This document shows, in pieces, positions 2,801 through 50,112 of a stretch of DNA of 64,000 nucleotides. The notes under the pieces were generated by a model. The model was not told where the DNA came from, did no database searches, and worked only from the letters and a program-made list of their open reading frames with translations. This DNA comes from Blasia pusilla (lineage: Eukaryota): assembly GCA_050084515.1 (NCBI GenBank), contig CM114271.1, positions 29,450,001 through 29,514,000 on the forward strand, written 5' to 3'. The position numbers were made by a program, and so were the translations under genes. Numbering within the stretch: the first letter of the stretch is position 1; the number at the start of each line of letters is the position of its first letter.

Positions 2801-2824
2801 GGTATCACACTTAGTCACCCCAAG

Positions 2825-5539: not shown

Positions 5540-5920
5540 CACTAGAAGAAATCTTGGTTAATATGATTCTAATATATGACTAGGTCGAGTCATTCTTCAT
5601 GGTAAATGACTCATAGTGACTCATAAACAATAGAGTCATATAAACCAAGTCATTTACAAGAAATGACTCAGACTACCCAGAAGGGAAATGACTGACTCAT
5701 TACTTACTCAATCATTGATTTATGACTAGAATATCACACGTGAGGGCGTTGTCATAGTGCCACGTCGTCACATGACATGACAAGAATGTTTTTGTTTTGC
5801 CTCTTAGATTGACACATGTATGAAATGACTAAGTCATAAATCCACTTCACAAATCATCAAATGACATGGCATAGTGACTAGGATTTGAATACCCTATCAC
5901 ATATGACCACGTGTCACCAC
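5540..5920 (+). repeat. Left CACTA terminal inverted repeat / subterminal region
   Basis: Aligns by eye with the reverse complement of 48455-48818 (shared actaggtcgagtca, aaccaagtcatttacaagaaatgact, taggatttgaata). Confidence 0.85.
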
Positions 5921-12630: not shown

Positions 12631-12919
12631 GCTAAACGCAAATCAACTCCTATAACTCCTGAGGAACTGATGTATCCGGCGCCGCTCTCCTCCTGTCAAC
12701 TTAGGGCCCATATTTGGCTCCCAAGTCTCCATCGTGACTACGGTAGGACTCTCCAACGCGGGTATCGCTGGTTGCTATGTTGCAACCCCGTCTCGAACAA
12801 CAATACTTGGTCGCTCTCTTAGAGCCAACTGCAAATTGTGATCTCCTCCATGTGCAGTGCTCTAAACCACGCTTAATGTTGTGGCTATCTACTCCTGGCG
12901 TACCTGCGAAACATCCCAT

Positions 12920-13570
12920 TTCAGAATGGAATCCACTAACAAATGGGAGGGGCACTCGACTCTTGCATACGCCCTCCGTAACATCGCATGGGGCACCAAG
13001 TTGGTCCACCATAGACGTGGGCGATGGGCTCTAGAACCTACACTTGCTGCATCCAAGAACACTGCTGGGCCGATCCAGATACACACTTGATGAGCACTTG
13101 TCACCACTTGTGAACTGGAGTCTTCTAAGATTGGCATATTCTCCAGAATGTAGGCTGGAGAACCAGATTGGTGCTCTTGCAACTGCCGTAAGACCCTCAA
13201 CATCTCCCAAAACAACCAGGACCGAGTGTCAGCCAACTTGCTGCCTCGTCTAGCACTCGATTGACCGTGACATGGCCAACCAGAAATGACCAAATGAATG
13301 GTCCCTACGCGCTCTAAGTCCTGCGCCCCCAACAACCAAATATCCCTTGGTAGGGAACTCTAGTACCCCTGTACCGCGGACGTACACAATAAGTTTGGAA
13401 AACGTAGGCATAATTGCGCCACATGTTGTAGTGAGACGCGCCTCGCAACATCATCACTCCACATACATGTACTGTTGTACTCGCACTCATGCCTGCAAAA
13501 CAACAGCTAACCCCGTGCTAATCCCTCCAAAGAGATCTAACATTCGAATACCCTCCTCTGGGGTACACCA
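12920..13570 (-). pseudogene. DNMT3-like C5 cytosine methyltransferase domain inside pol, copy 1 (motifs IX/X deleted)
   Basis: IRMLDLFGGISTGL (motif I, ~13510-13550), LVISGWPCHG (motif IV), LFWEMLR, YILENM (motif VI), FLDAASVGSRAHRPRLWWTNL (motif VIII). Confidence 0.9.
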
Positions 13571-14280: not shown

Positions 14281-14870
14281 TATGGACTAAACGCTCTACC
14301 TCCGGGACTCACCAACTAGAAGACCTCTCCTCGGTTATCCATCAACACAACACCAGGAGAAGCCATGGCACGCTCTATCGCTGGTCTCCGCCATCCTAGC
14401 AGCCGCATCCTGCCATGAATATGATATGGATGGCCCGAACATCCGCTCCAAGGGCAAGTCCGATCCATCACCTCTTCTGCAATCACCTCTAAACGTGATG
14501 CAGGAACTCCAACTCCACACTCACATAGCGTAGCGGCCAGCCAAAAAGCCTCGGCGGGCATACCCCCCAATGTCATAATATCGGAAGCAGAAAATATAGG
14601 AGCGCGGTACACAACGGTGGCCGCCCCCAAAAACGTGCTTGATACATGCCCCTCTTGAGCATCAAGAATAGGAGTCGTCGCACTTGCTTCTCCCATCGCC
14701 CTCCCTGCCTCCACACCAACAACATTACCAACTTTCTAGGAACTTTGATGAGGACCCATCGATGGGATCCTCATCGCTTTGGACAACATGAAATACTAAG
14801 GAAGCCTAGTCTATTTTCCGGCTTCTTCTCGCTGTGGATCCAACTCTACGGGTGCTCCACGCATCACAAC

Positions 14871-15756
14871 CGAGTTATACACACGAAGTTGTGAGAGATT
14901 TGAGTTTCTGCTCTTCTAGATTTGAAGATTTCAGATCTGAATTTTTCCGAGGCCATAACTTTTAGGTGGAGTGTCATGTAAAGCTGAGATTTGAAGAAAA
15001 CGTGGAGTATAAAAAGGTGCCCTAGCCCTCAAAATTTCAAACACAACAGAGTTATACACACGAAGTTGTGAGAGATTTGAGTTTTTGCTCTTCTAGATGT
15101 GAGGATTTCAGATCTGAATCTTGCCGAGGCCATAACTTTGAGGTGGAGTGTCATATGAAGCTTCAATTGGGAGAAAACGTGGAGTATAAAAAGATGCCCT
15201 AGCTCTAAAAATTGCAAATACAACCAAGTTATACACACGAAGTTGTGAAAGATTTGCGTTTCTACTCTTCTAGATTTGAGGATTTCAAATCTGAATCTTT
15301 CCGAGGCCATAACTTTGAGATGGAGTATCATCTAAAGCTGAGATTTAGAGGAAACTTGGAATATAAAAAGGTTCTCTAGCCCTAAAACTTTCAAGCACAA
15401 CCGAGTTATACACACGAAGTTGTGAGAGATTTGAGTTTCTGCTCTTTTAGATTTGAGGATTTCAAATCTGAATCTTTCCGAGGCCATAACTTTGAGATGG
15501 AGTGTCATATGAAGCTGAGATTTAAAGGAAACGTGGAGTATAAGAAGGTGCTTTAGCCCTAAAAATTTCAAGCACAACCAAGTTATACACACGGAGTTGT
15601 GAGAGATTTGAGTTTCTGCTCTTCTAGATTTGAGGATTTCAGATCTGAATCTTGCCGAGGCCATAACTTTGAGGTGGAGTCTCATATGAAGCTGAGATTT
15701 TGAGACAATGTGGAGTAGCTAGAGGCGTCTTAACCCTCAGAATGTCAAGTACAACC
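14871..15756 (+). repeat. Five tandem 177-bp monomers in the LINE 5' UTR
   Basis: Motif (g/a)agttatacacacg recurs at 14872, 15049, 15226, 15403 and 15580 (period 177); a diverged partial unit follows. Confidence 0.95.
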
Positions 15757-15831
15757 AACTTCTAGAGCAGAAGTTGTGTGGTGTTGGAGATTCAATTATA
15801 CTTTCTGGGATGTAGTGAAGTCGACTACAAG

Positions 15832-16587
15832 ATGACTACTCAAGACGAAATCTTGAATCTAGTGCAAGTGGTCTTGCATGAATTGAAAGAGCTTTGACAA
15901 GAATTCAAGGCACAAGCTTCTTAATTAAACCATGCACATATTCAAATCCGAGAGTTGAAGGCAACGCAAGAGGTTTTGAAGAAAGTGTTGAAAGATAGTT
16001 CTAGTGTGATGCTGGATCTTTCCAAATATGTTGCGGATGTTCAAGAGAAGGCATCATCCTTGGTGACTACTCCCAATAGTTCAGGATTGTATGAGGTTGT
16101 TGAAACTTTAGAAGTGAAAATGAAATCTTATGCTGAAGCTACAAAGGTTGCTCATATCTCTTTGTGTCAAGAGCAAGAGATAGAAAAAGAAAACCAATTT
16201 GCCCGTAGAAAGAATGTGAGAATCTCAGGTCTGCCGAAAACAGAGACCGAAGAGGTGAAGAGTGTTGTCACCAAGTTCTTGGTTGATACACTTCATGTTC
16301 ATAACCCGGACTTGGCTCAAGCTCTCCGTATTGGGAAAACGGGCACACAACCTCGTGCCATTCTAGTCAAGTTTGTTGATCAAATTCAACGTGATACTGC
16401 CATGGCTAACAAGGCCATTCTCAAAGGACGAAGGATATGGTTGGATCCTGATCTCACACCTCTACAAGTCGAAGCTAGGAGAAAGGAGCTTGCAAAGGTC
16501 AAAGAGGCTCAAGAAGCAGGTTTTATTGCTTATCTACGCGATGGTCGAGCAATTGTTACCCAGAGAAAAAGAGAGTTATCAACCTAG
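15832..16587 (+). pseudogene. LINE ORF1 (coiled coil + RRM-type)
   Basis: RRKNVRISGLP...ALRIGK...PRAILVKF...LKGRRIWLDPDLT is typical of LINE ORF1. ATG at 15832 is followed by two in-frame stops before the open part at 15955-16587. Confidence 0.8.
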
Positions 16588-16605
16588 CAATCCAAGAAGC
16601 TGAGA

Positions 16606-19600
16606 GTGTTGATGTGGAATATACGAGGCCTTTCAACAACAAAGTATGTGAGTGCTCTACCAATTTGGGGGATGGCGGATATTATCAATATTTTGGAGAC
16701 TTGGGAACATGAGATCAATACTATTGCAGATATGCAAGGGTTTACTTTGGTGGGATCGACATGGAATCAAAGAAGGCAACGGGCAGGAAGGGGTTATGGC
16801 GATATTGCTACTTTCATCAGGTCTCAATTTCTACCTCTCATACATCTAGAAGATCAAGATATTGAGGGCCAATATCATTGGCTACGTCTTGGTTTGGTTG
16901 GGGGATCTTATTGTTATCTGGCAGTTTGTTATTTTGCACCACTCTCCATGCCTATCTACTCAACACGCACTCACAATCGAAGTCAACCGTTCCATCGATT
17001 TATTGGGGATGTTCTCAAATATCAAAGCAGAGGTGAAGTCTTTCTAGTTGGAGATTTCAATGCTCGCATACGTACTGCTCAATTTACCCAATTCAGTAAT
17101 TCCTTGATTTCTCCTCTTCTCGAAGAATATGCGGATGGTTTGTGGTCTAGAATCTCTTAAAATCTTTCTACAAATCCTTTGACAAAGCATTTTTTAACCT
17201 TTGGAGCCACTTGTAATTTGAAAGTTCTTAATGGAACCTCTCATTTTCCCAACTCTCACTCCAATACGTGTTTCTCCTCTACCGGCGCTAGCACCATCGA
17301 TTATCTTGTGTCCTCACCCACAATAGCTCTCTTATCTCTACATTTGATATTCTAGAACCTCAGCCTGAATCAGATCATGCACCTCTTTTGTTTACACTCT
17401 CACTGTCAAAGGCAATTCCTCTCTCGACATGTCAATCTATTTTAGCTTCTCGCAAGTTTCGCTTAGATCTTGGTAAAACAGATCTTTATACGCTACATTT
17501 ACAAGAACTCTTGACTCGCATTGTATGGAGCCCGGATCCAAACACGGCAAGTATGCAACTAACCGAATTGCTAAAAAACAGTGCATCTAAGTTCTTTTCG
17601 CGCCACAGGGATAGAAGTGCTAGGAGGTTATCTTATAATGGGTGGTTTGACTCTCAATGCAAGCAAGCAAGGGCACGATCAGTTGATAAATCTTTGGATA
17701 TCCCAAGTCGGCTTATTATGACGAGCCTTTACAAATACTTGGTGAAATCTAAGAAACGAGCTTTCTTGCGGCGGAAACAAGAGTCCTTGAGTTTTGGAGA
17801 CGGTTAGTAGTACGGTCTTCAAAACCTATTCTTGATCCCAAGTCTTTGATATCTTTTGCCGAAAAGCTCTATTTCTTCCCCGATGCTACATCTATGCCAC
17901 GTTGTGAAGGAATACCTGGCTTATTCTCTGAAGGAGAGGTGATGACTCAACTAAGAAGATTGGCGAATGGTTAATGTGAGGATTTGGATGGTCTTTCTAT
18001 TGAACTTTTCAAGTGGGGAGGAGATTGTATTGGACCAATCCTCACCAAAGTATTGGGTGATGCTGCTATCTATGGTTTTCCTTCAACCTGGTCGCTACGG
18101 GAGATTGTTCCTATTCACAAATCAGGAAGGAAGGACTTGGTAACAAACTATCGCACTATCATGGTGGGTAGTGGTTTTGCCAAGTTGTTTGGGAAATTGG
18201 TGGAGTCGAAGTTGAGCACATGGACAGAGACTTTCCAAAAGAGAGCACGAGTCCAAGCTGGTTTTCGTCCAACATACAACACCATCGACCATATCTTGGC
18301 CTTGCGTGTTTTATGGGAGAAATCTAAGGGCAATGGAAAAGCTTTGTTTTTCGGCTTCATCGATTTCAAGAAAGCTTTTGATACTGTACCTCATAAGCTC
18401 TTATGGGAAAGGCTGCAAGCCATTGGAGTACCATCAAATCTCCTAGCAGCCGTGGCCACGTTATACCATTCCGTTCGGGCCAAGATCAAAGGTTCACAAA
18501 TTCAAGAGATCTTGAGTACCTTTGGAGTCATTCAAGGTTGCCCTCTCTCTCCTACACTTTTTGGAGTTTTCATAGATGATATCGAAAAGTGGTTGGAGGA
18601 ATGTGATAGTAAAGATGTCAAGCTTGGGGACTTTGTCATCAAAGCTCTATTGTATGCAGATGATATCATATTACTAGCACGTGATGGCATTAGTTTACAA
18701 AAGCACCTCGATACTTTGGCAAGATTTTGTACCCAGAATCAGATGGAGGTTAATATGGAGAAGTCTAAAGTCATTATAGTGGATACTAGATCCAAGTTCT
18801 CGTTCTTTTACAAAGGTTTACAATTAGAACAAGTGAAGAGTTACAAATATCTAGGCATCGATTTCTCTAATGACTATAGTTGGGCACTTTGCGTGCAAAA
18901 GAGAGTAGAAGCTGGTTACAAAGCTCTATATTCATTTTTAAACCGGTGTAGAAGAGCTCATCTTGTATCTTGGAGGCTTAGGAAATTCTTATTTAGGAGC
19001 ATAGTGTTGTCGGTGGTCTTATATGGGACCCAAGTTTGGGGCCCTAGTTGTAAGACGACAGGTTGGGAGTGCGTGGAGAGGGTGCAAAAGATCTTTCTAC
19101 AAGAAGAATTGGGTGTAAGAAACCAAACTCTGTATGCTATTCTTCTTGCGGAAACAGGTTGTCTTCCTCTAGAAGCTGAAGCTCTTTACTTGACCATCAC
19201 TTACATCGCAAGGGTGAGATCTCTTGATGTTTCTCGCCTCCCTCATCAAGCTTTGCGAGCCACACGTTCCATAGGGTGGATGGCGGATGTGGTGACTTGG
19301 TCTTCAAAGTGGAATGTGGCGGAACGCGATTGGGACTTGAAACCAATGACCCTCCGTGAGCATCTACAAAAGCAATTTCTCAACATCATTTGGAGCAGTC
19401 CGGGCACCAAAATAGAGTTTTATCAACTTCATGTTAATCCTATGCTTGTATATTGTGAACAAGGATACCTACTTGCGCGGATCTCCACGTTCTTACGACA
19501 TATTATCGCACGTCATAGAACTCGGTCTCATAGGCTAGGAATTGAGGAAGGACGATGGTTTAAAATTGATAGAAGTGAACGAATTTGTAGGTTATGTGAC

Positions 19601-19781
19601 GGAGAAAATATTGAGGATGAAGAGCATGTGTTTGTTACATGTCCAAGATATGAAGAGATTAGACTAGCTCATAAAATAGATGTGGAGAATTTCTATTCTT
19701 TACTATAGCTAGTGCCTTATGATTTAGGTTGTTATATTAGGGACGTCATTATTCATCGCTCAAGTGCTCTAGGCTGTAGCT
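16606..19781 (+). pseudogene. LINE ORF2 (AP endonuclease, RT, C-terminal CCHC)
   Basis: MWNIRGL, LETW, VGDFNAR, IDY, SDHAPL; NYRTI, QAGFR, FIDFKKAFD, QGCPLSPTLF, LLYADD, YKYLG; ERICRLC...EDEEHVFVTC. Several stops and frameshifts. Confidence 0.92.
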
Positions 19782-22700
19782 AGGAGAGAAGGTCTTAAGG
19801 ATCTTTTTCATGGTCAGTGAATGAATGACTTGAAATGTGTTTTTCAGCCTTTTGACCCTTTGGGTCCCACGGGCTTGATCTATTTACCATTTATCATTTA
19901 CAACTGCGGCGGCCTCCATCTGGGCAACCCCGCACATCCAACCAGGATCCTCCATATCTCTGGCTGCTCCATATGATGTCAATGCCACGGATCCGGCATT
20001 GGGTAACCTCAATGCCATAGCGGCAATCTGCTCCTGTAGCTACTGTATCTAAGCAACCATCCCAGCCTCACGTCCGGCGTCTCCCTCAACGCGTCTAAGT
20101 GGTGTTACTCTACCTCCTCCACGGGCAGCTCCACCACCCTATCAAGCAACTCCAGCTCCTCGTCCCCCAACGGGACCACCTGGTGCACGATCTCTAGGCC
20201 CACCCGGACTGGCTACTCGGTTTGGTGCCCTCTCTGGCCCTCGGTGCGGACATAACTCAGGATGTAAACTGAAACACCTGGCGCGTGTATGAACATACCT
20301 CTGACAATAGTCACACTAATAACCTCCTGGTGCAGCAGTATCTCCTCCTCCATGTTGAGGCACACGTCCATGACCTAGACGAGTGCAATCGCACTGATGA
20401 TGGGCTCCACCACATGACCAACAAGTAATAGTAGGCAGTTGCTACTTAGCTGTATATGAAGGCGCACGTCTCTATGGCACGGCCTCTCCATATCCTCCCT
20501 GATATCCACAGTCGACCTATCTCAGAGTCCAGATTGCTGCATAGGTGGTGCAGACAATCGCAACTGCTCTTGCCTTGAATACATGGTGGCTACGCTCTCC
20601 TCCGCCATGTTGCACTCAATGTTCTTGGCGGTCTTAAAAACATCTCTCAATGTAGGGGAGGTATTCATAAGAATCACCCCCTCCTGCACCCGTGTCCGCA
20701 CCGTCCGGTCCAGCATCGCGTACTATGACTGGATAGCCTGAGCCTCTATCACCCCCTGAGTGACGTTGATCAACCGGCGCAAGCAAGTGTAAGCCTCATG
20801 CAAACTCTTACCCGGGCGCCTTTGGAAGTCGTGGATGCTCCGCAACTTCTCCGCTTGTACCCCTTGGTAGCTCGCCCTCAACTCAACAAAGAACTCAACC
20901 ACAGGGTTAAACTTGGGACGAACCCGACTAGAAGGTACAACTGCTCCCGTGCCACTGACCCCTCCTAAAATGTCACTAGTGGAAGAGAAAGTAGCCTCTC
21001 CTGACTACTCCTCCTTATCTGGGAACGGCTCCATCCATGACATATAATGTGGGTCATAGTAGAGCCTCTACGCCTCGATCTCACATGCATATCTTTGAGA
21101 GAACTCATGGAAATCGTCCATGGGCGCCCCTCTAAATGCAGGAACATATCGTTCCATGCTGTAAACGGGTTGAACTCTCTAGAGTCCCTGGCCCGCTGGG
21201 AGTCGCACCAACTCCTAAACTCTGCTATGAAATTGTGCAACTCAATCGTACCTACTGCACCTGAAAACCTACGGGGTCTTCTACCCTGGTCGTCCATCTC
21301 GTACGCCCAACTGGTAGGACCACTCACAATGTGTGGCAATGTGCTCACAAACTTCTCTACATCCTTCCTCCTTGTCTGAAAATGACACAGAAGGAGGTCG
21401 AGATGGTCCCTCACGTGGAGATCCTCGGAACCTCGCGCCACTCCGCGTAAAACCTCCAAAGCTACTCTCGGGTTCATCACCTTGCCTCTCAAGGTCTCGA
21501 ACGGAAGTCGTGATGACCCTTGTGCCCCTCTCACCCGATCACTCTTGCCTCGCGAGTAATCCCTCAATCACTCATCCCAAATATATGACACTCGAACTAC
21601 ACTCTCCCTCCTTGAGGCGTGTAACAAGCGGCAACAAGCGGCGTAGTGCGGCAAATCGACGAGGCTATCATCTCATCGACAACCTACCCTCAACTCCGGA
21701 CATCCCACACAGGTCTATGTCCCCTAAACTACATACATAAATGATGCTCTCAGCATCCACATACCCAATATCCCCAAATAAACTACCCAAATCCCAGAAT
21801 CCCTCACACGTGAAGGGTAAAGGACCAAAATGGATAACCTGAACACATGTCGATATCGCACCTCAACAATTGCAAATCTCGACCCCAACTCGGTCATGGG
21901 GACAACTCCTTCAATCACCAAGTCAAACTCCTCCCGTGATGTTGCTCAAAACTTCTCGATAGACAGTGCGGTTCCTGCGGAATGGTGCGGCGTTGCACGC
22001 GGCACGGAACGGCTACGAACGACACGACCCCTCGATGGTGGGATGCGGCACTCAGTGGCATACCCTCCTCAATCAACAATAAACCGCCACTGTGCTCCAT
22101 AATGATGGTTCGGCTCCATGATCGAGACGGTCCGGTGCGGCCACAAGAGGCACGGCACGGCAATCAACGACGCGTTGCAGCTACGGGCGTCACGACACGG
22201 TACTCGATCATCGTCGAGCGGCTACCAATCACAACATAGCAGCATGAAATCACAACTCAAACACCATAACCGGAGGTCATCTACCATCATTGGTTCATGA
22301 AAAAACTACGATGATAGTGACGGCCAAAACAAAGTACATGGTGGCGACGCAAGTCAGAGAATCAACGAACGTCGTGGAAGACCATCCACTCCGTAACGGC
22401 AGAAATGGCAACCAAAGGGTGGACAACGGACGGTGGACCATGATGATGATGGTTGACCATTGATGATGACAATGATGGTGATGGTTGACCATTGACGGTG
22501 ACTATAACGGCGACGGCCGCCGGCGGCGTGGCGGCTGGTTTAGGGTTTGAACAATTTAACCCTAAAAATCGCCTAGCAATGGCAATTTTGCAAGAATCAC
22601 CTTAACTTTTTGTTAAAAATTCAAAATTGCACATTTTTTGTTGCACAGCGTGCACAACTTCACAATCTACGAAAAAATTAAAAAATATTTAGAATCAAAC

Positions 22701-23086
22701 ATTCCAGTAAAAATTGACAGGGACTATTGTAAAGCCCAATGTCTCTTTCTCCTATACAAAATTTGGCAGTGCTTCCACGCTGATTTCTCCCAACAAAAAT
22801 GTAAAACCTGTAAAAATACAAATCAGCAAGCTTCATGGTGCTCTTGAGAGAACCGGCATAGGGCAACCCGCCCCCATAATCAATCCCTATCAGAAATCAC
22901 GCAGCGCTTCCGTGCGCCACTCTTCCCCATGAAAAATCAACAAAAGCAAAGAACAATCAAAGCAGCCCTTGCTCCGGTGAGCACTCCCATGAGCCGCTGA
23001 ACAAGGAACATGGTCCCCAACCTACAAAAACAGCAAGTGACCAGCGAGCTCCCCCATCAAGCTCTCTCACTCTCTCATTCTCTTTT

Positions 23087-23531
23087 TGTAAAGTAAGATC
23101 CAATCTCTCTCTACACCATCTCACACCATAACTCTCAAAGTTGTGCACTCTCTCTCATGTCAAACCAAACCCACTCTCCTAGTGAGAGGCTTGGGTTACA
23201 CTCACAAGGCAATGGACCTTAGCTCCGCCGCCTTATGCCAAGAGGTTCAACAAAGAGAAAATGAGCTCTCAAGCTCTCTCTCCTTGAGGTATACCCCTCC
23301 CTTCTCCCAAGCTCTCTCCGTGGTAACCTATTCTCCCAAGTCACCTCCTTGGCTCTTGACCTGATGTAGGAGGTCAAGGGACACTTACCAAAAATAGTAA
23401 ACGAAGGGAAAACCTGCTCTCTCAGGTTTCCCGGGGCCTCAGCAAGTCATCCTCGACCTACTGAGCCTGTTCTCCCCTACTCACGAAGGCGCTCTACTAC
23501 ATCTCACCGATCTCTCCTAAAAGACGTGACA
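23087..23531 (-). repeat. 5' terminal repeat A of copy 1
   Basis: Homologous to 33510-34020, 9254-9415 and (inverted) 44254-44795; begins TGTCAC on minus. Confidence 0.9.
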
Positions 23532-24423: not shown

Positions 24424-24564
<141 letters not shown>

Positions 24565-25870
24565 CCTCTCCCTCTCCCCTGGCGGGAGCGTGGATAAAAT
24601 TGTTACGTGACTCTAAGATAGGAACGTCCCAGATATTTGACGCCAGTCAGGTGAGTTTTAGTAGATCCCATTTCATACGGCAAGGAAGACCTTGGCAAGG
24701 AGCAAGTAGATTCCTCGACCTGGATGACTTACATTTCGGGAACTTCTTCTATCGAAATGTATGTCATTAATTATGCACTTTTCTTTATTTTTTACCCTGG
24801 CGGAATGCTTCCTTGCTTTCCATGTAGTAGAACTCTTTCTTTGTCAGAAAGCTGCTACAGTTATGTTTACTTTGCGATATGGAGGCTATCTATTTTTCAG
24901 TAGCATTTTCGAATGAATAATGAGCCATGGAAAAATATTAGTGTTGAAGTAACGAGATTTCCTCTAAGGCAACTAAAAAGATGGCTTTAGTTCCGGGGAA
25001 TGCTAAATCACCAATCGATCTAGAGTGCAACAAGGGAGTGCAGTAGTAATACGTGTTGCATGAGGCATGCTTCAAGGACATGGATTTCCTTCGACACATC
25101 TAAAGTTATCACATCCAAATAAAATAGATGTGAACTGTCTTTAGAGATCCTTTCAAACGTTTCCAAGACATGGATAAGTGTGTATTCTGAATTGATGACA
25201 TGCTAAAGGCATTGGAAATGAGAGCAATGTAGACGTTGATCGTGCGGGAGAGTTTAGAGGTGTACCGGTACGTGTTCGGAGGACAATTCTCAAGGAACAG
25301 CTACTTCTCAAGGCATCATGCCTTAAATATATACATATCGTGCCAACCATGGAATTGGTTGAATTTGGCTCAACTAGTGTTGTGTATCAGGTACAGGAGC
25401 AAAGGAAGACTCAAATATCACATAGGGGACCAAGACATTCACTCCTTGACCTACCAACTACTTACTTGTACGTCACTCTTCTCATTGTTCTCCTTGCGCC
25501 TTCATGTAGGTTAGACCCTTGCTTTAGTGGTTAATTTGATGTGAGTGTAAGGTGAAGTACTATGGTCACTCACAACAAATTAGCTTTATAGTTTTTTTGT
25601 CCAGATCTTCGCTCGAAAAATTTATTAGACCATGGCTATGATGAAATGTACATATCAAAGGATTAAGTCATTATCTAAAGTTGGGTGTGTTACATTTGTC
25701 ATTCAGGAATGTCCTTGGAAGCGTTGGACCACATCGGTGAGGATTGTTAGTGACGATTGAAATCTCTATCGAGATAAGTCCGAGATTAGGTATATGTGCC
25801 TTATCATACTTTTCTTGACTTCACGTGGGTGTGCATTCGTCTAAGATGATAGCTCGTCCAGCCATGGTTT

Positions 25871-32500: not shown

Positions 32501-33381
32501 AATTGATTGTTGGATTATATATGCAGAGTGTGGAATCCATAGTCACTATTCAATTGGAAGAAGTGGAAAAGAAGTGGAGCGCAGATTTGGATGATGTGAA
32601 GTTGCAGATGGAACGGCAGAACAAAGCATAAAGTGTACTCATGGAAATGGTGTCCAAGCTTACTTCAAAGGATGTGTCTTTAACACCATACCATATTTCT
32701 AGTTCCCCGCCATCCAATTCTCAACCATATGCAACAAGGGATGAGAAGCTCACATCAAGTAGCCCATTCTCATTCTTCTGCCCTCGATTTTCAATGGTTA
32801 TAACTACTTGTCCTTTCCAGCATGAATATTTCAGAACTGACTTTCTTTGTTTTGAGTAACTTACAATCATTGCTGAACCTATACCAACGTTTGGAGCCGG
32901 ACAATTAGGGAAGAGGAAGATCTCCAAACAAAAAGAGGCCATGGCAACTATACAATCTGGTGGTAAGGAGTGAGTTTAGCTTCACTAGATGTAGGGTCTT
33001 CTAATATAATTACTTGTTGAAGTGAAGAATCTGGTTTTACAATTCATTTCTCAATACTTGGGTTATTTATAGAAGTGCCAGAACGGAGCAACAAAAGGAG
33101 AAGTTCCACAGAAAGTGCAGATGGTAATACTCGAATCACTCGTAAGTATGTCATCCTTCGCATCATGAATTTTTCTTTGGTGTATTTTTCAACCTATCCA
33201 CAAAAAAATACTCATTTCTTCCTACAATGTTCAATGGACTTTGGCGTGCATAATGTGTAGAAATCCTGAGTATGGACAACCAAGCCAAATCATCACTAGG
33301 CAAAAGTCTAGGCTACAGTCTGATGGTTTGAATGAGCAGGAAAGTGAAATCAGATCACGCTCGTCTAAGAAAATAACTAAG
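29533..33381 (+). pseudogene. CACTA ORF2 (TnpA/Ptta-like), multi-exon, 5' part
   Basis: Exon 31585-32114 encodes WNRLVYYWLSEEGKMKAEKMARAKAKV, typical of plant Ptta/EnSpm ORF2; many short GT-AG introns; directly downstream of TnpD. Confidence 0.65.
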
Positions 33382-34328
33382 GTAATTTGTCTCATCTATA
33401 ATGGCATCTTCTATTCAAGGGTCACCAAATACACACACAAACATGCACGATCCCATGCTAACTCATGGCGTCCAAACAACGAGACAAGAAGTACCAAAAT
33501 ATCTCCAATAAAATAAAATCCAATCTCTCTCACAACACCATAGTTCTCACATGTGTGCACTCTCACATGTCTCTCTCAATATCAAACCAAACCTACTCTC
33601 CTAATGAGAAGCTTGGGTTACACACACAAGGCAAGCAAGACCATAGCTCCGCCGCCTCATGCCAAGAGGTTCAACAAAGAGAAAATGAGCTCTCAAGCTC
33701 TCTCTCCTTGAGGTATACCCTCTCCCAAGCTCTCTCCATGATAACCTATGCTTCCAAGTCACCTCCTTGGCTCTTGACCTAATGTAGGAGATCAAGGGAT
33801 ACTTAAAAAAAATAGAAAGTCGATCATATACTCAAAATGGTACTTACCTAAAATAGTAAGTTCCTCAATATGGCTCCAAACGAGCCGAAACGAAGGGGAA
33901 ACGTGCTCTCTCAGGTTTCTCGGGGCCTCATCAAGGCATTCTTGACCTATTGAGCATGTCCTCCACTACTCATGAAGGCGCTCTACTAGATCTCACCGAT
34001 CTATCCTAAAAGACGTGACAGTTATTGCGCGCATACACATCGCTACACAACATACATCGTTGTCACCGAACACACACACAAACACGCACGATCCCATGCT
34101 AACTCATGGCATCCAAATAACGAGACAAGAAGTACCAAAATATCCAATCGCCCCCCTAGTTGGTGATTAGGTCCCTCTAACTCTGGATAGCCATCTATCC
34201 CTACCTACCATGATATACATCTCTCAGACGCTAAGAGCAAGAAGGTCAGGTGCTCATGTGGCCCCATCGTTAATCACCTTCTTGTCATCCATATCACAGA
34301 CATAAGTTAGAATTTATAACAACATACT

Positions 34329-34469
34329 CTATGTACATTTGGGACACATCCATCGTCCCTGAGGAACCCTAGTGAGAGGTGGCGTCAAACATGCCATATG
34401 CCATCCTCTTGAACACCCATCACAGACTTGCATAGTGGCTGCACCACGGGTGGAACCACACAACATACA
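34329..34469 (-). pseudogene. Intact C4HC3 PHD finger at the integrase C-terminus, copy 2
   Basis: CMLCGSTRGAATMQVCDGCSRGWHMACLTPPLTRVPQGRWMCPKC. Confidence 0.92.
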
Positions 34470-37400
34470 CCGCAATCCTGTAGGAACTACTACTAAGCTC
34501 AGATCAATTGTACCGTCAATGTTTGGAAGATGACATGGCGCACAGTTACGCACATGGTCCTTCCAAACCATACCATCGTGTCCCTCCAATAAGAGAACAC
34601 CCGATGGCAAAACCTCACGCACTCTCAAGATGGTGCGCCCTACAGTCACATCCAACGTCATGGGTGTCGTCTACTGCAAGTAGACATAGTCTCACTGATG
34701 AAACTTCTAGATAGTAGGTTGATAACCATCTCCCCGAATAGTCGCATACCTCAATATATCTCGATATTGCGCAATCGCCAAGTTCTCAAATGCCATGGGC
34801 ATCATTCTCTGAAACAACTTAGCCTTCTGAGAACATGCTCGCATCCATACATCAAGATCATCAAGGTTCAACACCTCACCAACATCTCGACAAATGGCCG
34901 TAGGTAAATCTGGCTCTCGGCCATAAAGCAACAAGTACGATAAGAAAGATGTTGAGGATGCCTGCTTGCTGAATCTGTATCTCATTGCCAACCAAGGCAA
35001 CTAAAGGTCCCAATCTCCTAGGTGATCTCTCTGGAAGCCATACTTGCATAGTCCTCTCTTCATCGTCTGCACAACCGGCTCTTCTAGTCCATCCGCCTCA
35101 GGATGATCTCGCGCAGTAGTGCGGTGGTCGATCAGTGCCTGATCACACAAGGCCTGAAACTCCCGCGGAACTCTGTACCCTGGTCTATCAACACCTCAGC
35201 TAGTGCGCCGTAATCACTCAACACTCAATCTAGGAAGGCATACGCTACTCCCTCATTCACTTTGTCATGCAATGCAACCAACTCTATCCACTTCGAGAAG
35301 TGCTTGACCATCACCAACACATAACGACTATGGCGCTCCGTCAAAGGCAAAGTTCCTACAAAATCCAAACTCCATCTATAACCTAAACCCATGATCAAAA
35401 GTGGATGCAACTGTGGAGTCAGAGCATTGAACGATGCTCGGACTCAATCACACGTTATGCATCAGGCAATAAATTGCTGAACGTCAGTCTGCATGCCTCG
35501 CCACCAATACTGAATCTTGAGCAAGTTGTACGTCCGCTTCACTCCAAAATGACCCAACTCCTCATGGGCATGACGCACCAAACGTGCTCTCTGCAAAGGA
35601 TAGGGCACTACACGCACTCTACCATCCTCCCACACTCGCAACACATATGTGCCATCCCACCGGAACCATCTGGCTCGTTGTAGGATTCGATCTCGCTCCT
35701 TACAAGCTTCTAGATCTAAGAACTCTCCATTAGACCTCACCATCAAAGTCTCAGCAATCTGGCTCTCCATAGCCAACAAGCCCAAATAGGCTGATGCATG
35801 CCATCTTGGCACCAACTCCTCATCACTCTCACCATGCCAATGAGCTCCAGTCGCATCTCGCTAACTTGGGCATGGATTATAGCTCAAACCATCTGCATCC
35901 TGGTTGAGCATCCCAGGTCTATGCACCACTTAGAAGTCATACTCTTGCAACAAAAGAGCCCACCTCGCAAGCTTCCCTGTAAGCTTTTCGGACTCCATCA
36001 ACCACTTAAGTGGCTGATGATCAGTAATGATGGTAAAGGGATTGCCGAATAGATAATATCTGAAATGTGCGACAGTCCACATTGCAGCGAAGCATTCACC
36101 CTCATACGAGCTATACTTTGCCTCTGCAGCATTGTTCAAGCGACTAGCGTAAGCCACCATGAACTTTCTACCATCATCGTCATGTTGGGTAAGCACGTCT
36201 CCAAGCCCCAACATGCTCCAATTGGTATGCAACTAGAAAGGACACCCCATGATCGGTCTCCTTAATATGGGCACGGACGTCAATCTATCTATGAGCATCT
36301 AAAATGCTCTCTCTTGCTCATCCTCCCAGTGTCATTCTTGATCCACCTTGGTCATCAAGGTTAGCGGCTTCCCAATCAAACTGAAACCCTTGACGTACCG
36401 TCGATATAAGTTTGCCAATCCCATGAATGCACGAACTCGACTCACATCTGTAGGGCGTGGAATGCGTGAAATAGCCTCTACCTTTGTTAGTTGCACACCC
36501 ACGCCCCCGTGGTATATTGTATGACCCAAGTACTCAATCTGGTCATAGAAGAACTTGCACTTGCCAGGATGGAGCATCATCCCATGTAACTTCAATTGTT
36601 GAAACACCTCCTCTAGATGTCGCTCATGCTCCTCAACCGTGGCGCTAAAGACTACGATGTCATCAATATAACACCTAGCAAAATCCAGACTTGCCAAGAT
36701 CCTATCCATGACCCTCTGAAACTCAGCCGAGGCATTCTTTAACCTGAATGGTAAGAACCGCCACTGGTACAAACAATCCTTCCCATGAGGATCGATGCCC
36801 CAAAATGTCATCTTCTACGTGTCCTCCAATCTGATAGGCAGCTGATGGTATCCGGCTTGCAAATCCAATGAACTGAAGACCTTTGCATGCCCAATTGCAT
36901 CAAAGATCTCCTCAGGGGTGGGCATGGCATACCCATCGAACTTTGTGTATCGATTGATAGGTCGGTAATCTCCACACATCCGCCTATCCGTCTAGTTGCC
37001 ATGCACATCCTTCTTGGCGGGCATGACAGTGGCAAATGCATACTCTCCATGCAAAATCTCCACTAGTCCTGCTCCAACCAAGTCTTGGCTCCTAATCTGA
37101 ATCAGAGCCCTCTCCATGTCACTATACCTGTAGGATTTTCAGGAGATCGGCGTATCACTCGACAACTCAATGCGGATCCCTGGACCCTTCATCATACCCA
37201 AATCATGCATACTAAATGCAAAACAACTCCTATAACTCCTAAGGAACTGGTGTATCCGATGCCGCTCTCCTCCTATCAACTTAGGGCCCATATCTGGCTC
37301 CCAAGTCTCCATCGTGACTACGGTAGGACTCTCCGACGCGGATGTCGGTGGTTGCTGTGGTGCAACCCCATCTCGGACAATAGAACCCTCATCTCCACGT

Positions 37401-37589
37401 GCAGTACCTGGAACCACGCTCGATGTTGTCGCTATCATCTCCTGGGGTACCTGCAAAACATCCCACGAAGTCCAAGAGTATCTCTCTCGATCGCCGCTTG
37501 TGTGTCGATCTCCTCGGGTCTCGCCCCCAGCCACTGCCTCAACCGTCTCAGTAGGCATCGAGCTCACCAACGTTCTTTTGTGATTAGTC

Positions 37590-38583
37590 GCATCCTCAAA
37601 CGACGTTGCTCACCTACTCCTAAGCTAAAAATCCATGTCAAAAAGTTTAGGTCCATCGCCTGACCCAAGACATGACGTCGTGATGCCTCCGATAGTGATG
37701 GTAGTGCCGTCACTCCTATGGGGAATCCCATCGCTCCCTCTCGCTCATCGGCGTTGGGCTCCACCAACCCCTGTACCTGGTCATCCCAAACCAAGCCAGG
37801 TTTGGCCTCCTTGAATGCATAGGAAGCTAGAAAAACTCACCAATGTGGGAAAGGTTGCTCATGGCATGCCAATCCTATTGACCATGGTCAACGGCGGTCG
37901 ATCATCGTGCCACATTGCTTGTGATCGACGGCCCGGATCCAATATAGAAACCACCAATAAATCGGAGGGACGCTCCACTCTCGCATAAGCCCTCCATAAA
38001 ACCTCATGTGGTATGAAGTTGTTCCACCAAAGAAGCGGGCGGTGTGCTCTAGAACCTACACTCGCAGCATCTAAAAATACTACCATGCGCGCACTTGATG
38101 TGCACTCGTCATCCTACGGGACCTCGAATCGCCCAAAATCAGCACATTGTCCAAAATGTATGTTGGAGAATGAGGTCGATGCTCATGTAAATGTCGCAAG
38201 ATCCGCATCATCTCCCAAAATAACCTAGACCGAGTGTTAGCTAACCCGCTACCTTGTCCAGCACTCGATTGGCCCTGGCGCGGCCAACCAGAAATGGCCA
38301 AGTCTATGGTCCCTACCCGCTCCAAGTCCTGCGCCCCCAACAATGAAATGTCCCTTGGTAGGGAACTTTGGTAACCCTCAATGGTGGATGCAAACAACAA
38401 GTTAAGAAAACATAGGCGGAATAGCACCACATGGTGAAGTGAAGCACACCTTGTAATATCATCAATCTCCACATATAGGTACTGCTGCACGCGCACTCTA
38501 GCGTGCAAAACAGCAGCTAACCTAGTATTGATCCCTCCAAAGAGATCCAACACCCGAATACCCTCCTCTGAGATGCACCACAC
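37590..38583 (-). pseudogene. DNMT3-like C5 cytosine methyltransferase domain inside pol, copy 2 (all motif regions present, frameshifted)
   Basis: IRVLDLFGGINT (I), YLYVEID (II), PRDI (III), DLAISGWPRQG (IV, C>R), SRLFWEMMR, YILDNV (VI), FLDAASVGSRAHRPLLWWNN (VIII), EREGAMGFPIGVT...SEASRRHVLGQAMD (IX/X). Confidence 0.92.
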
Positions 38584-41500
38584 AGTCGGTATGGTGTCAA
38601 AAGGGTCATGGTAGCACTCCTTCCTACGTGGGGTTCCTTTGACCCGTCACACTCAAGTGCAAACATCTCGCTCCACGCGGTCTGCACATGCTCTGTGGCT
38701 AAGCGTCAAAGCTCCTCAATCAAGCCCTAAAGCAGCACCTCTCCTCCACGGACTGATGCGGCTACCATGACACTCCTCTCCATAGAAATGTCAAGAATAG
38801 GAGTATCCTCTGTATGGACATGTCCCTCAATCAAATCACTAGGCCAAGTGACGGCATTGCTAAATGCTGCTAAGGTCGCCATCTCTCCTGGCCGTCGCTA
38901 GATTACTACACCTGTGAATTGAACAGGTAATGAGCTAAGGCGCCCATCACTTGACTGCCATCCTGGTCTGTAGAACGTTGACTCCTCACAATAATCCAGG
39001 GAAAATCCCATCGGATATAACACTGCTCCACCAACCAAGACATCATAGGACTCTGCATCAATCACTATCGCCTTGGCTTGCACCACGGACTCATTTGTAG
39101 GACGTCTCGGGCAAATCCTCACCACGACCTCCTGTCGGGTGATATACTATATGGTACTCGATCCACCCAAGGATATCTATATTTGGATGGACAACGCTCC
39201 ACATCGGCTCTTGTCAAGCCCAATCCTCTGAATGACGCTTTCCCCAACATCAGGGGTTGCGGCTTCTAAATCCAACAAGGCGCGTTGCGTACTAAAAGCT
39301 CTACCTCCAAGACTCACCAACTGGAAGACCTCTTCCCGGTTATCCAACAACACAACACCAAGAGAAGTCATGGCATGCGCTATCACGGATCTAGCGGGCA
39401 TCTCCGCCATCCTAGGTATCGTAGCGTGCCATGAATCTGACGTGGACGGCCCGAGCATCTGCTCAAAGGGCAGGTCCATCACCTTCTCTGCAATCACCTC
39501 TGAACGTGATGCAAGAACTCCAACTCCATGCTCACATAGTGTAGCGGCCACTTGAAAAGCCTCGGTGGGCTCACCTCCCAACATCATAACATCGGAAGTA
39601 GAAAATAAAGGACTGCGGTATACAACGATGGTCGCCCCCAACAACGTGCTTGACACATGCCCCTCCTGAATCAGCAATAAGAGTCGTCGCACTCACTTCT
39701 CCCATCGCCCTCCGTGCCTGCACACCAACAACATCACCAACTCTCCAAGAACTCTGATCAGGACCCATCAATCGGGTCCTCATCGCCTCGAACAACATGA
39801 AAGACTAAGGAAGCCTGGTCTGTTTCCTATTTTTCCCTCGTTGTGGATCCAACTCTACGGCTGCTCCATACGTCACAACTGCGGCAGCCTCCATCTGGGC
39901 AACCCTGCACATCCAACCAGGATCCTCCATATCTCTAGTTGCTCCATATGATATCGATGCCACAAATCCGTCATCGGGTAACCTCAATGCCATAGCGGCA
40001 ATCTGCACTTGTAGGCGTTGTATCTGAACAGCCATCTCAGCCTCATGCCCGGCGTCTCCCTCGACGCGTCTAGGTGGTAGGACTCTACTTCCTCCACAGG
40101 CGGCTCCATCACCCTATCAGGCAACTCCAGCTCCTCGTCCTCCAACGGGACCAACTGGTGCACGATCTCTAGGCCCACCCGCACTGGCTTCTTGCCTTGG
40201 TGCCCTCTCTAGCCCTCGTTCCGGACGTAACTCAAGGTGTAAATAGAAACACCTGGCGCGTGTATGACCATACCTCTGACAGTAGTCACACTGATAACCT
40301 CGTGGTGTAGCACCATCTCCTCCTCCATATCGAGGCACACGTCCATGACCTTGACCAGTGCAATCATGCTGATGATGGGCTCCACCACATGACCAACAAA
40401 TACTCATAGGTGGATGCTGCTAAGCCGCATATGAAGGCGCAGGTCTCTATGGCACAGCCTCTTGGTATCCTCCCTAAGCTCGTGGTGCCATAGTCGACCT
40501 ATCTCGGAATCCACGTTGCTGCACTCGTGGTGTAGACAATCGTGACTGCTCTTGCCAAGAACCCATGGTGGCTACGCTCTCCTCTGCCATGTTGCGCTCA
40601 ATGTTCTCAGTGGTCCTAAAAACATCTCTCAACGTAGGGGAGATGTTCATAAGAAGCACCCCTCCCGCACATGTGTCCACAGGGTCCGATCTAGCATCGC
40701 ATACCATGACTGGATAGCCTAAGCCTCTATCACCCTGAGTGACGTTGATCAACCGGCGCAAGCGAGTGTAAGCCTCATGCAAACTCTCACCCGGCGCCTG
40801 TGGAAGTCGTGGATGCTCCGCAACTTCTCCGCCTGTACCCCCTAATAGCTCACCCTCAACTCACCGAAGATCTCAACCATGCGGTTGAACCTGGGACGAA
40901 CCCGACTAAACGGTGCAACTGCTCTAGTGTGAATGACCCCTCCTAAAACATCACTAGTGGAAGAGGAAGTAGCCTCTTGTGACTCCTCCTCCTCATCTGG
41001 GAACGGATTTGTCCATGACACATAGTGTGGGTCATAGTAGAGTCGCCATGCCTCAATCTCCTGGGCATATCTGTGGGAGAACTCATGGTAATCGTCCATG
41101 GGCGCCCCCTCTAAATGTTGGAACAAACTGTTCTATGCTGCAAACGGGTTGAACTCTCTAGAGTTCCTAGCCCAATGTGAGTCACACCAACTCCTAAACT
41201 CCGCAATGAAGTTGTGTAGCTCTATAGTGTTTACAGCACCTGAAAACCTACGCAGTCCTCTACTCTGGTCGTCCATCTCGTACGCCCAAGTGGTAGGACC
41301 ACTCAATGTATACGGTGGATCACTAAAACATTCCTCTACACGCTCCCCCTCATCTGAAGACGACACAGAAGGAGATCGAGGTGGTCTCTCACGCGGAGGC
41401 CCTCAAAACCTTGCACCACTCTAGGTAAACCCTCCAGAGCTACTCTCAGGTCCATTACCTCGCCTCTCAAAATCCCGAAAGGATGCAGTGATGACCCTTG

Positions 41501-44253: not shown

Positions 44254-45520
44254 TGTCACGTCTTTTAGGATAGATCGGTGAGATCTAGTATAGCGCCTTC
44301 GTGAGAAGTGGAGGACAAGCTCAGTAGGTTAAGGATGACCTGCTGAGGCCTGAGCAGGTTTCCCCTTTGTTTCGGCTCATTTGGAGCCATATTGAGGAAC
44401 TTACTATTTTAGGTAAGTACCATTATGAGTATATGATCGACTTTATATTTTTAGTAAGTGGCCCTTGACCTCCTACATTAGGTCAAGAGCCAAGGAGGTG
44501 ACTTATGGAGAGATCTATCCTAAAAGACGTGACTTATGGTGACTTATGGAGGAGCATAGGTTACTATGGAGAGAGCTTGGGAGAGGGGAAGGGTATACCT
44601 CAAGGAGTGAGAGCTCATTCTATCTTTGTTAAACCTCTTGGCATGAGGCGGCGGAGCTATGGTCCCTTTCCTTGTGTGTAACCCAAGCCTCTCATTAATT
44701 AGGAGAGTGGGTTTGGTTTGACATTGAGAGAGACATGTGAGAGTGCACACATGTGAGAACTATGGTGTTGTGAGAGAGATTGGATCTTATTTTACAAAGA
44801 GAGAATGAGTGAGTGAGAGAGCTTCATGGGGGAGCTCGCTGGTTGCTTGATGTTTGGTGTAGGTTGGGGGACGGTGTTCACCACTTTATGGCTCATGGGG
44901 GTGCTCACCGGAGCAAGAGCCATGCGAGTTTGCTGTTTTGCTTTGCTGATTTTTTGTACGGGAGAGAGGCACGCGGAAGGGCTGCCCAATTTTCTAAAGG
45001 AATTGAGTATGGGGGTAGATTGCTCCATGCCAGTGCTCTCGGGAGCACTATGTAGCTTGCTGATTTGTGTTCTCATAGGTTTTAGATTTTTGTTGGGAGA
45101 AATCAGCGCGGAAGCGCTGTCAAATTTTGTGTAGGAGAAAGAGACGTTGGGCTTTACAACAGTCCCCATTAGTTTTTATTGGAATATTTGATTCAAAATA
45201 TAATATTTTTTGACGTAACTGTAGATCGTGAAGCTATGCACGCTGTGCAATAGACAGTGTGCAATTTGGAGTTACGAGCAAAAATATATGGTCAATCTTG
45301 CAAAACTGCCATTGCTAGGTGATTTTTAGGGTTAAATCGTTCAAACCCTAAACCAGCCGCCACGCCGGCGGCGGTCATCGCCGTCATAGTCACCGTCAAT
45401 GGTCAACCGTCACCATCAATAGTTAATCGTCACCGTCAATAGTCAATCATCATCATTAACGGTCAACTATCACCATCAACGGTCTGCCGTTACCATCAAC
45501 GGTCAACCGTCACCGTCAAC
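44254..45520 (+). mobile_element. 5' end (repeat A + leader) of the DNMT retroelement, inverted relative to copy 2
   Basis: Starts TGTCACGTCTTTTAGG; colinear with the reverse complement of 23531-22440; ends in the 20-bp tandem array where copy 2 breaks off. Confidence 0.9.
45391..45520 (+). repeat. 6.5 x 20-bp tandem repeat (caccgtcaatggtcaaccgt) in the retroelement leader
   Basis: Visible directly; a more CpG-decayed version is at ~22430-22505 in copy 1. Confidence 0.85.
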
Positions 45521-48818: not shown

Positions 48819-50112
48819 AGAGGACGATGAGGAGGTGAAAGGTGACTGACATATTCACGAGGATGGAGTGGTCTTGGATTACCTGCATACTGGCATTGTT
48901 GTAAGCATAGTGGGTGCTAGAGAGCGCGATCGGATCCTACAATAAGCCAGACGATTTTGGTGGGAGGGGACACATGTATTACGAGTTTGGCAAGATGGTA
49001 GAGTACGTGTAGTGCCTCATCCTTTGTAGAGAGCACGTTTGGTGTAGCATGCCCACGAGGAGTTGGGTCATTTTGGAGTGAAGCGGACATACAGCTTGCT
49101 GTAGATACAATTTTGGTGGCGATACATGCAGACTAACGTTCAACCGTTTGTTACAAGGTGCATGGTATCTGATCAGGTCCGGGAATCATTCAATGCTCTG
49201 ACTCCAAAATTGCATCCACTACCGATCATGAGTTTAGGTTATAGATGGAGTTTGGACTTTGCAAGACTTTTACCTTTGACGGAGCGCCATAGTCGTTACG
49301 TGTTGGTGATGGTCGAGCACTTCTCAAAGTGGATAGAGTTGATTGCATTGCCTAACAAAATGAGTGAGGGAGTAATATATGCCTTTCTAGATCGAGTGTT
49401 GAGTCATTATGACATACCAGCAGAGGTTTTGATTAACTAGGGTACATAGTTTCGCAGACAGTTGTAAGCCTTGTGTGATCAGATGCTGATTGACCAGGGC
49501 ACCAATTCGTGAGATCATCCTGAGGCGGATGGACTAGCGGAGAGGGTTATGTAGACGATGAAGAGAGGATTACACAACTATAGCTTGCAAAGAGGTCACC
49601 TAGGAGATCGGGACCTCCAATTGCCGTGGTTGGCGATGGGATACACATTCAACAAGCAGACATCCTTAGTGTCTTTCTCATCGTACTTGCTGCTTTATGG
49701 CCGAGAGCCAAATTTACCTGCATTCTTTTGTCGAGATGATGATGTATAGATGCGAGGATGTTCTCAGAGGGCTAAGTTGTTTCGGAGAGTGATGCCCATG
49801 GCGTTTGAGAACTTGGCGATTGCGCAACATCGGGATGTTGTGCAATTGTCATGTATGCGACTATTCGGGAAGGTGGTTATCAACCGACTATCTCGATGTT
49901 TAATCAGGGAGACTATATCTACTTGCAGCAAATAACACCCACGACATTGGATGTGATTACCGTGGAGAGAGTGTGAGAACTCGTTCTCTCTTTGTTGAAC
50001 CTCTTGCAATGAGGCCGCGGAGCTATGGTCCTCCTTGCCTTGTGTGTGTAACCCAAACCTCTCATTTGGAGAGTCGGCTTGGTTTGACATGAAAGAGAGT
50101 AGGCTTGGTTTG
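48819..50112 (+). mobile_element. Fragment of a third copy of the DNMT/PHD retroelement family (integrase + part of repeat A)
   Basis: MQTNVQPFVTRCMVSDQV...RWSLDFARLLPLTERHSRYVLVMVEHFSKWIEL closely matches copies 1 and 2; 49962-50112 matches repeat A. PHD region deleted. Confidence 0.88.

Follow-up and report, generated by a model that had tools for sequence, protein, structure and literature searches.

How a retrotransposon with a DDE integrase can carry split direct repeats in place of long terminal repeats (LTRs) is the question raised by a 64,000-nucleotide stretch of the Blasia pusilla genome (contig CM114271.1, positions 29,450,001 to 29,514,000; hereafter the window). Split direct repeats, two sequences A and B ordered as A1 ... 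B1-A2-B2, are customarily taken as the mark of tyrosine-recombinase retrotransposons, and to our knowledge the replication of elements bearing them has never been worked out. The original prediction, drawn from the letters of the window, placed this arrangement on an element with a DDE integrase and proposed for it a priming scheme independent of tRNA. What it had observed was confirmed in part, and its interpretation was supported. In the window lie three copies, all old and broken, of a Ty3/gypsy-like retrotransposon family, and the norm of that family is an integrated form with the order A1 - leader - genes - polypurine tract - B1 - 2 nt - A2 - B2.

Repeat architecture of the window copies

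Self-comparison of the window displayed three diverged copies of one element, about 80-91% identical: copy 1 on the minus strand (23531 down to about 9254), copy 2 on the minus strand (about 43611 down to 33421) and copy 3 on the plus strand (44254 to about 50100). Stops abounded in the open reading frames (ORFs) of all three, no copy retained both ends, and a sensitive BLAST of the window located pieces of A, B and leader in these three copies only.

The 3' end of copy 2 (minus strand) showed the order previously described, namely B1 (34147-34021, consisting of a main part at 34147-34061 and a 40-bp tail at 34060-34021), A2 (34020-33509, starting with TGTCAC) and B2 (33508-33421). B1 and B2 were 94% identical over 83 bp (E 3e-29). 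B2 abutted the end of A2 and was missing the last ~40 bp of B, with a different repeat family beyond it, while the tail of B1 ended in a degraded version of ACGACA plus 2 nt. The absence of a polypurine tract before A2, reported earlier, was verified, but a G-run (GGGGGG at 34156-34151) had been missed 3 nt before B1, in a polypurine-tract-like region spanning 34148-34190 of the minus strand. The 3' end of copy 1 (9545-9254, minus strand) repeated the arrangement, also in agreement with the original prediction: B1 (9545-9457) was followed by a 40-bp stretch ending in ACGACA (9423-9418), then by GT (9417-9416), then by an A2 that began with TGTCAC at 9415 and broke off after about 160 bp, at 9254.

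At the left ends, 23531 for copy 1 and 44254 for copy 3, TGTCAC came directly after unrelated flanks. A1 of copy 1 (23089-23531, minus strand) had B on neither side, and A1 of copy 3 (44254-44794, plus strand) matched A2 of copy 2 in inverted orientation only. The two copies shared A to its last base and then continued into a common leader, with no B. The earlier description of 5' ends composed of A and a leader lacking B was therefore right for both positions, but 44254 belongs to the plus-strand third copy and not to copy 2, which has no visible 5' end, its collinearity with copy 1 ending at 43611. The claim that copy 2 lacks a target-site duplication (TSD) fell with this assignment, as the flanks compared for it (tcaag and cgtat) belong to two different copies.

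The family in its own genome

Raw reads (one genomic and two RNA runs) and a contig set were aligned to positions 33150-34550 with at least 80% likeness. The genomic pile-up (36727 reads) reached a summed depth of 2400-3100 over the internal part of the element, 3800-5800 over A, 4350-5700 over B1 and 1077-1950 over B2, compared to 35-58 over the flank. Across B2 of copy 2, depth dropped from about 2000 to about 110. B2 occurs once in the window, as stated earlier, but genomic reads over the A-to-B junction were abundant, with a depth of about 2047 at 33517 and of 1316 at 33470.

Reads also delimited the termini. Ahead of the A start at 34020, 1457 reads carried diverse sequence, which makes the start of A the left terminus in other copies. 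At 34029, 2080 reads diverged from the window, continuing with ACGACA and then with diverse AT-rich sequence, which sets the right terminus at the end of the 40-bp stretch; about 2600 reads passed from this stretch into A2, and 2558 of the 2612 reads at position 34028 had the copy-1 base. These junctions indicate that the 40 bp, formerly regarded as a spacer, are the tail of B, that B2 of copy 2 is truncated, and that the A-to-B junction is not specific to this locus. The GTGAC(A) formerly given as the end of B is not the true terminus, as B2 of copy 2 has lost the B tail.

Nearly all flank reads differed from the window (29 of 30 at 33159, for instance), and the flank is hence another repeat. 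The reads seem to cover the window locus itself roughly once at most, implying a very large genome with thousands of copies of the family. RNA reads over this copy 2 flank (33150-33420) ran antiparallel to the RNA of the element.

RNA reads were strand-specific and sense to the element over the 3' untranslated region, B1 and A2, and the sense RNA faded in the last part of A and B2, ahead of the A2|B2 junction. RNA reads departing from the window sequence at 34148 and 34183 mostly shared one consensus (agreement 0.95-0.98), whose B start resembled that of two metagenome families described below (L001 and L031). This suggests one expressed subfamily nearer to the L001/L031 metagenome copies than to those of the window.

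Related loci and integration marks

Metagenome contigs were scanned with an alignment of 12 relatives, yielding 80 loci, and repeats were called by self-comparison of all 80 together with a scan for junction motifs. Not all of the 80 loci were classified, and many contigs stop short of the 3' end of the element. The DNA of the window family was 71-78% identical to the L001, L031 and L033 families (RT-integrase and G-run region, RT standing for reverse transcriptase).

The arrangement B1-nn-A2-B2, where nn denotes two nucleotides, was found in 13 of the 80 loci, that is 10 distinct loci once repeat-sampled sites were merged, and A1 was also present in eight of these (L031, L038, L039, L051, L056, L063, L068 and L070). 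Together with the read pile-up, this recurrence makes A1 ... B1-A2-B2 the architecture of the family, as had been proposed. A began with TGTCATG in the relatives (TGACATG in one locus, and TATCATG in A2 of two loci), and B ended with CACGACA or a near variant. The integrated unit starts with TGTCA and ends with GACA, giving TG...CA ends. A G-run sat 0-4 nt ahead of B1 in all loci read, and the same G-run stood immediately before B1 in seven related loci. The end of B1 and the start of A2 were separated by exactly 2 nt, which over 16 junctions (15 loci and window copy 1) were GC in seven cases, AC in four, GT in four and TC in one.

A2 met B2 at the last base common to A1 and A2 and without extra bases, the next base being the first of B1. 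A1 and A2 were 84-92% identical and B1 and B2 86-95.5% identical; the two values covaried among loci, as they should if each pair started out identical when the element inserted. A1 and A2 of L078 were 100% identical over 127 nt, suggestive of young copies in its host.

A followed unrelated DNA at 17 distinct left ends (the eight loci above, six of the L001 family, L078 and two in the window), and B was present at none of the 17. No mirror form (A-B-nn-A ... B) was found in any related locus examined. The left end is A only and the right end is B-nn-A-B, and no pair of identical LTRs was found.

Among the relatives, perfect 4-bp TSDs, the mark of insertion by a DDE integrase, bracketed the whole A...B-A-B unit in six of the eight complete loci: AAGG in L031, GGTC in L038, CCAA in L039, AACC in L056, AAAG in L068 and ATAA in L070. 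The TSD of L063 had one mismatch, and L051 had none.

With these data, it is very improbable that the family is an ordinary gypsy with two identical A+B LTRs that was split by local rearrangement, by nested or tandem insertion, or by misassembly. The window alone could have been read in this way, all of its copies being old and damaged and B2 occurring once. Against it stand the recurrence of the same order and 2-nt junction in 10 distinct loci of other assemblies with TSDs around the whole unit, the 17 distinct left ends with A only, a depth of about 2000 at the A-to-B junction in genomic reads, and the divergence of the repeat pairs, which at 84-95% identity are not assembly duplicates. Neither identical A+B LTRs with a primer-binding site and a polypurine tract, nor a B2 unique to this locus, was encountered.

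Five loci (L005, L033, L052, L054 and L059) had an A...B form, stopping at the end of B1 without A2-B2. Perfect 4-bp TSDs were present in L033 (TACA) and L059 (AATT), at sites other than those of the complete loci. L052 shares its site with L039 (flanks 96% identical, both with the TSD CCAA), so at least L052 is a former full copy in which B1 and B2 recombined. The automatic screen had scored L059 as a complete split-repeat copy, misled by low-complexity repeats, and the locus was reclassified as A...B-only.

Other rearrangements were observed in L041 (9600-17276) and L010 (4900-5820), both inversions with breakpoints at A or B repeats, which suggests recombination between inverted copies. Several TTTAGGG-like motifs (of the plant telomere type) occurred at the A start of L059, L066 and L075.

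Integrase and coding content

The domain order of the family is gag, protease, C5-DNA-methyltransferase, RT, RNase H, DDE integrase and PHD finger. Pfam matches in ORF fragments of the window included PHD, Integrase_H2C2, RNase H, RT and, upstream of RT, the methyltransferase, with rve in copy 3; RVT_1, RT_RNaseH, Integrase_H2C2 and rve were present in both the window and L038, in the Pol order of gypsy elements. The degraded polyprotein of copy 2 (34329-40419, minus strand; Pfam and ORF list) comprised pieces of zinc knuckle (40117-40419), protease-like domain (38898-39146), C5 DNA methyltransferase (38080-38646), RT (36332-36814), RNase H (35930-36232), integrase H2C2 (35462-35860) and PHD finger (34329-34670). 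Copy 3 retained an integrase fragment (48828-49956, plus strand), followed by a fragment of A (49965-50100, plus strand).

The identification of a gypsy-like element with a DDE integrase was thereby upheld. Among the relatives, one reading frame of L038, broken by a few stops only, spans methyltransferase-RT-RNase H, H2C2 and rve-PHD, and the D,D35E triad was readable in L038 and in the relatives P0019 and P0029. The integrase core matched the Ty3 Gag-Pol chain 7q5b (E 2.6e-10) and PFV integrase.

A tyrosine recombinase, supplied in trans or overlooked, could in principle integrate the element as in DIRS, PAT and Ngaro and leave the DDE integrase a relic, the repeat order being otherwise known from tyrosine-recombinase elements. 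We give this hardly any credence. We know of no target-site duplication in PAT, Ngaro or VIPER elements. The 4-bp TSDs contradict such a route, and the TG...CA ends count against it; D,D35E has been kept in relatives, and no match to Phage_integrase (PF00589) was obtained in Pfam searches of 20 window ORFs and 18 L038 ORFs of at least 80 aa.

The methyltransferase matched PF00145 in copy 2 (E 2.6e-6), copy 1 (7.8e-6), L038 (2e-9, within one ORF with RT) and the intact protein P0001 (1.5e-13). P0001 (782 aa) takes in protease and methyltransferase as well as the end of gag, and the methyltransferase ORF of copy 2 was 56% identical to it. Counted among 50%-identity representatives, relatives of P0001 numbered 4175 at E<=1e-3 and 202 at E<=1e-30. 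The long ones were gypsy polyproteins, one of them with a PHD finger. Their methyltransferase preceded RT in some and lay between RNase H and integrase in others, as in P0029; the differing position indicates that the domain moved or was acquired more than once within the group. Methyltransferase motifs were recognizable in copy 2 (38080-38646) and copy 1 (12889-13359), both on the minus strand. For the catalytic Pro-Cys motif, copy 2 has PRQ; the intact P0001 has PCQ, and also ENV.

Priming signals

In the window as in the relatives, the leader starts without a TGG site of the tRNA type. Its first 12-16 nt past A1 instead match, in reverse complement, a segment of A located 120-180 nt before the end of A. 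Complementarity was complete in L031 (16/16) and in L038 (12/12 from the first base, extending to 15 bp in the fold), and reached 14/16 in L063 and 13/16 in L051. Weaker members of the L038 group (L039, L056, L068 and L070) had 9-12/16, and the sole mismatch of L001 was a G-T position. As a control, 100 other leader 16-mers per locus gave means of 9.1-9.6 and maxima of 12-14.

The window copies were in the same range, with 14/16 in copy 3 and 13/16 in copy 1, the latter becoming 14/15 if position 33683 takes the majority base of the genomic reads. The putative self-priming primer-binding site of copy 1 is formed by the first 15 nt past A1 (23074-23088, minus strand), and that of copy 3 lies at 44795-44809 (plus strand). 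In A2 of copy 2, the complementary segment is at 33690-33675, with a TATA-like box at 33717-33713 (both minus strand).

The paired sequences differ among the L038 group, the L031/L001 group and the window family, which indicates that the pairing, and not the sequence, is conserved. A TATAAAAGG box was found about 32 nt upstream of the complementary segment in the L038 group, and weaker TATA-like motifs 26-29 nt upstream of it in the L031/L001 and window families. The RNA predicted from segment to site folds into a panhandle in L038 (-35.2 kcal/mol, z -4.6) and L031 (-57.8 kcal/mol, z -2.9); in the GC-rich relative L078, whose A end is undefined, no clear candidate was found. To judge from these sequence features, the family looks like a case of self-priming of the Tf1 type, in which the primer is 11 nt long. 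The complementarity in three diverged families supports the tRNA-independent priming that had been proposed.

Proposed mode of integration

With somewhat more confidence than doubt, we explain the integrated copy as a rotated product of reverse transcription, its ends joined and the molecule then opened at an internal integrase site. Transcription would begin at the segment of A that pairs with the leader start. As in Tf1, self-priming would start the minus strand, through pairing of the RNA 5' end with the site just past A1, and the plus strand would be primed at the G-run just before B1. With priming at these two places, the repeat duplicated by RT would be B-nn-A and not A-B, and the expected linear complementary DNA (cDNA) would read B-nn-A - leader ... 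G-run - B-nn-A. Joining of its blunt ends, A end to B start, would produce the A2|B2 junction, and opening of the joined molecule at the B/A boundary of the leader-side repeat would give A - leader ... G-run - B-nn-A - B.

At the opened position, the integrase would recognize its own two ends abutted, GACA-nn-TGTC, a 10-bp palindrome if nn is GC, and cuts after each CA would yield two ordinary processed ends. The route could be through a two-LTR circle, or cutting and integration could come first and joining by host end-joining later. The A2|B2 junction and B2 would be remade in each cycle, while B1-nn-A2 would be the inherited template for both termini.

The A2|B2 junction varied by 0-2 nt among copies, two loci being without the AT present in A1 and B1, and these small differences fit a junction remade at each insertion. 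The junction of L010 contained 11 nt of the primer site and 5 nt from beside the G-run. A fragment of A in L010 that seemed to begin exactly after the self-primer segment was dropped as a candidate, the locus being a complex rearrangement. Concatemeric or read-around reverse transcription was also rejected, by reasoning, as a source of the A|B junction, for it yields A followed by leader and never by B.

The rotated product has to be compared with a rival in which RT alone yields a linear A...B-A-B cDNA, through template switches using the internal B1-A2 as the copy of both termini, and the integrase processes its free ends; such a scheme resembles those proposed for PAT and Ngaro elements and dispenses with end joining and internal cutting. 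We hold this to be unlikely, though it has several points to its credit. The repeat order defines the PAT, Ngaro and VIPER elements (PMC4157794). The extra A-B has a single orientation in 8 of 8 complete loci, which directional copying fits more easily than the cutting of a symmetric circle, and a few RNA molecules end just within B2, at 33503 and 33467. It is countered by the A2|B2 junction, which consists of exactly the two primer-defined ends and which in L010 carries primer-site bases, as end-joined cDNA would. In addition, given the priming sites identified, no series of template switches was found, by reasoning and not by computation, that puts B after A at the right end, and the 2 nt between B1 and A2 are left without a role.

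Several observations weigh against rotation and joining. A two-LTR circle has two identical internal sites, so the mirror form is expected about half the time, and it was seen in none of the eight complete loci. An orientation bias could arise if the leader-side repeat became double-stranded first during reverse transcription, which is a conjecture. The pairing in the window copies is imperfect (13-14/16) while control 16-mers reach 12-14, and RNA depth showed no rise in the presumed R region. Searches of the window and of 25 loci turned up no tRNA gene and do not directly rule out priming by tRNA. The L010 junction is one example only, and its locus is rearranged. The five A...B-only loci might have integrated directly in that form instead of arising by deletion, although one of them shares its site with a full copy.

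A broader claim would follow from the rotated product, which we advance tentatively and would sooner doubt than assert: that the DDE integrase bypasses the ends made by RT and cuts an internal back-to-back site on cDNA joined by the host, and that split repeats in general are the signature of integration from inside. The two-LTR circle is a dead end for retroviruses; if the claim is true, this circle or an equivalent would here be a productive intermediate, and split repeats, those of tyrosine-recombinase elements included, would signal integration from within a repeat.

Other features of the window

Copy 1 is interrupted by a LINE-like insertion foreign to the element (14865-19900, plus strand), with endonuclease and RT ORFs at 16588-17160 and 17975-19708. 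The start of the insertion (14865-15872) consists of five tandem units of 177 bp. Immediately outside copy 1, at 24426-24576, is another tandem array, of 6-bp period.

Comparison with known systems

The family joins split repeats with all the hallmarks of DDE integration and with clear priming signals. Since the latter and the integration ends are both in place, the ends that RT is expected to make and those used by the integrase are defined, and the offset between them is the length of B; with both fixed, the regeneration of split repeats becomes testable with ordinary tools. The family is moreover abundant and transcribed in the organism of the window, and its own cytosine methyltransferase and PHD finger are relevant to how transposons handle host chromatin.

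The bare combination of split repeats and gypsy domains is already known from one 2018 figure legend on a charophyte alga. KnitGypsy-Dnmt3 of Klebsormidium nitens is described there as having DIRS-type repeats, A - coding - B-A-B, with Gypsy-typical domains (Fig. 4c legend; de Mendoza et al. 2018, PMC5890265), and the portions of text of that article devoted to it mention no TSDs, primer site, polypurine tract or replication scheme. The likeness, taken from that description only, lies in a C5 DNA methyltransferase inside a gypsy Pol combined with DIRS-like repeats; the host there is K. nitens, whereas the family described here resides in thousands of copies in a very large genome. A 2026 preprint has, in the part available, a passing mention of "streptophytes (Gypsy-DNMT3)". 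Among publications on split direct repeats and gypsy elements, judged by title, none dealt with split repeats in elements with an integrase. The present family is a further member of this known, barely described group of gypsy elements with split repeats. The 4-bp TSDs, the back-to-back integrase site, the G-run before B1, the self-priming signal and the rotation model appear to be new within the literature searched.

Split direct repeats define the PAT, Ngaro and VIPER elements, which have the same A1 ... B1-A2-B2 order with the internal pair downstream of the genes, as far as the consulted part of the source describes them (PMC4157794). These elements encode a tyrosine recombinase, whereas the family described here has a gypsy-type RT and RNase H, a DDE integrase, 4-bp TSDs and TG...CA ends. 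Self-priming is on record for the Tf1/sushi and plant Tcn1 elements of Ty3/gypsy (PMC6317226, in the part consulted), which likewise lack a tRNA-type site and have, beside the repeat, a site complementary to the presumed 5' end of their own RNA. They have two identical LTRs and a chromodomain, in contrast to the split repeats and PHD finger found here.

Canonical Ty3/gypsy elements share with the family the order gag-PR-RT-RH-IN (PR, protease; RH, RNase H; IN, integrase), D,D35E, TG...CA ends, 4-bp TSDs and a polypurine tract, and differ from it by the absence of rotated repeats and of the proposed RT-made B-nn-A offset from the integration ends. The internal site GACA-nn-TGTC has parallels of another kind. 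The circle junctions of IS3 and IS30 are abutted ends used by DDE enzymes, and the two-LTR junction of retroviruses is cut by integrase in vitro. In both, two ends stand back to back a few bases apart as a possible substrate, as they would in the site proposed here, the resemblance being one of analogy only.

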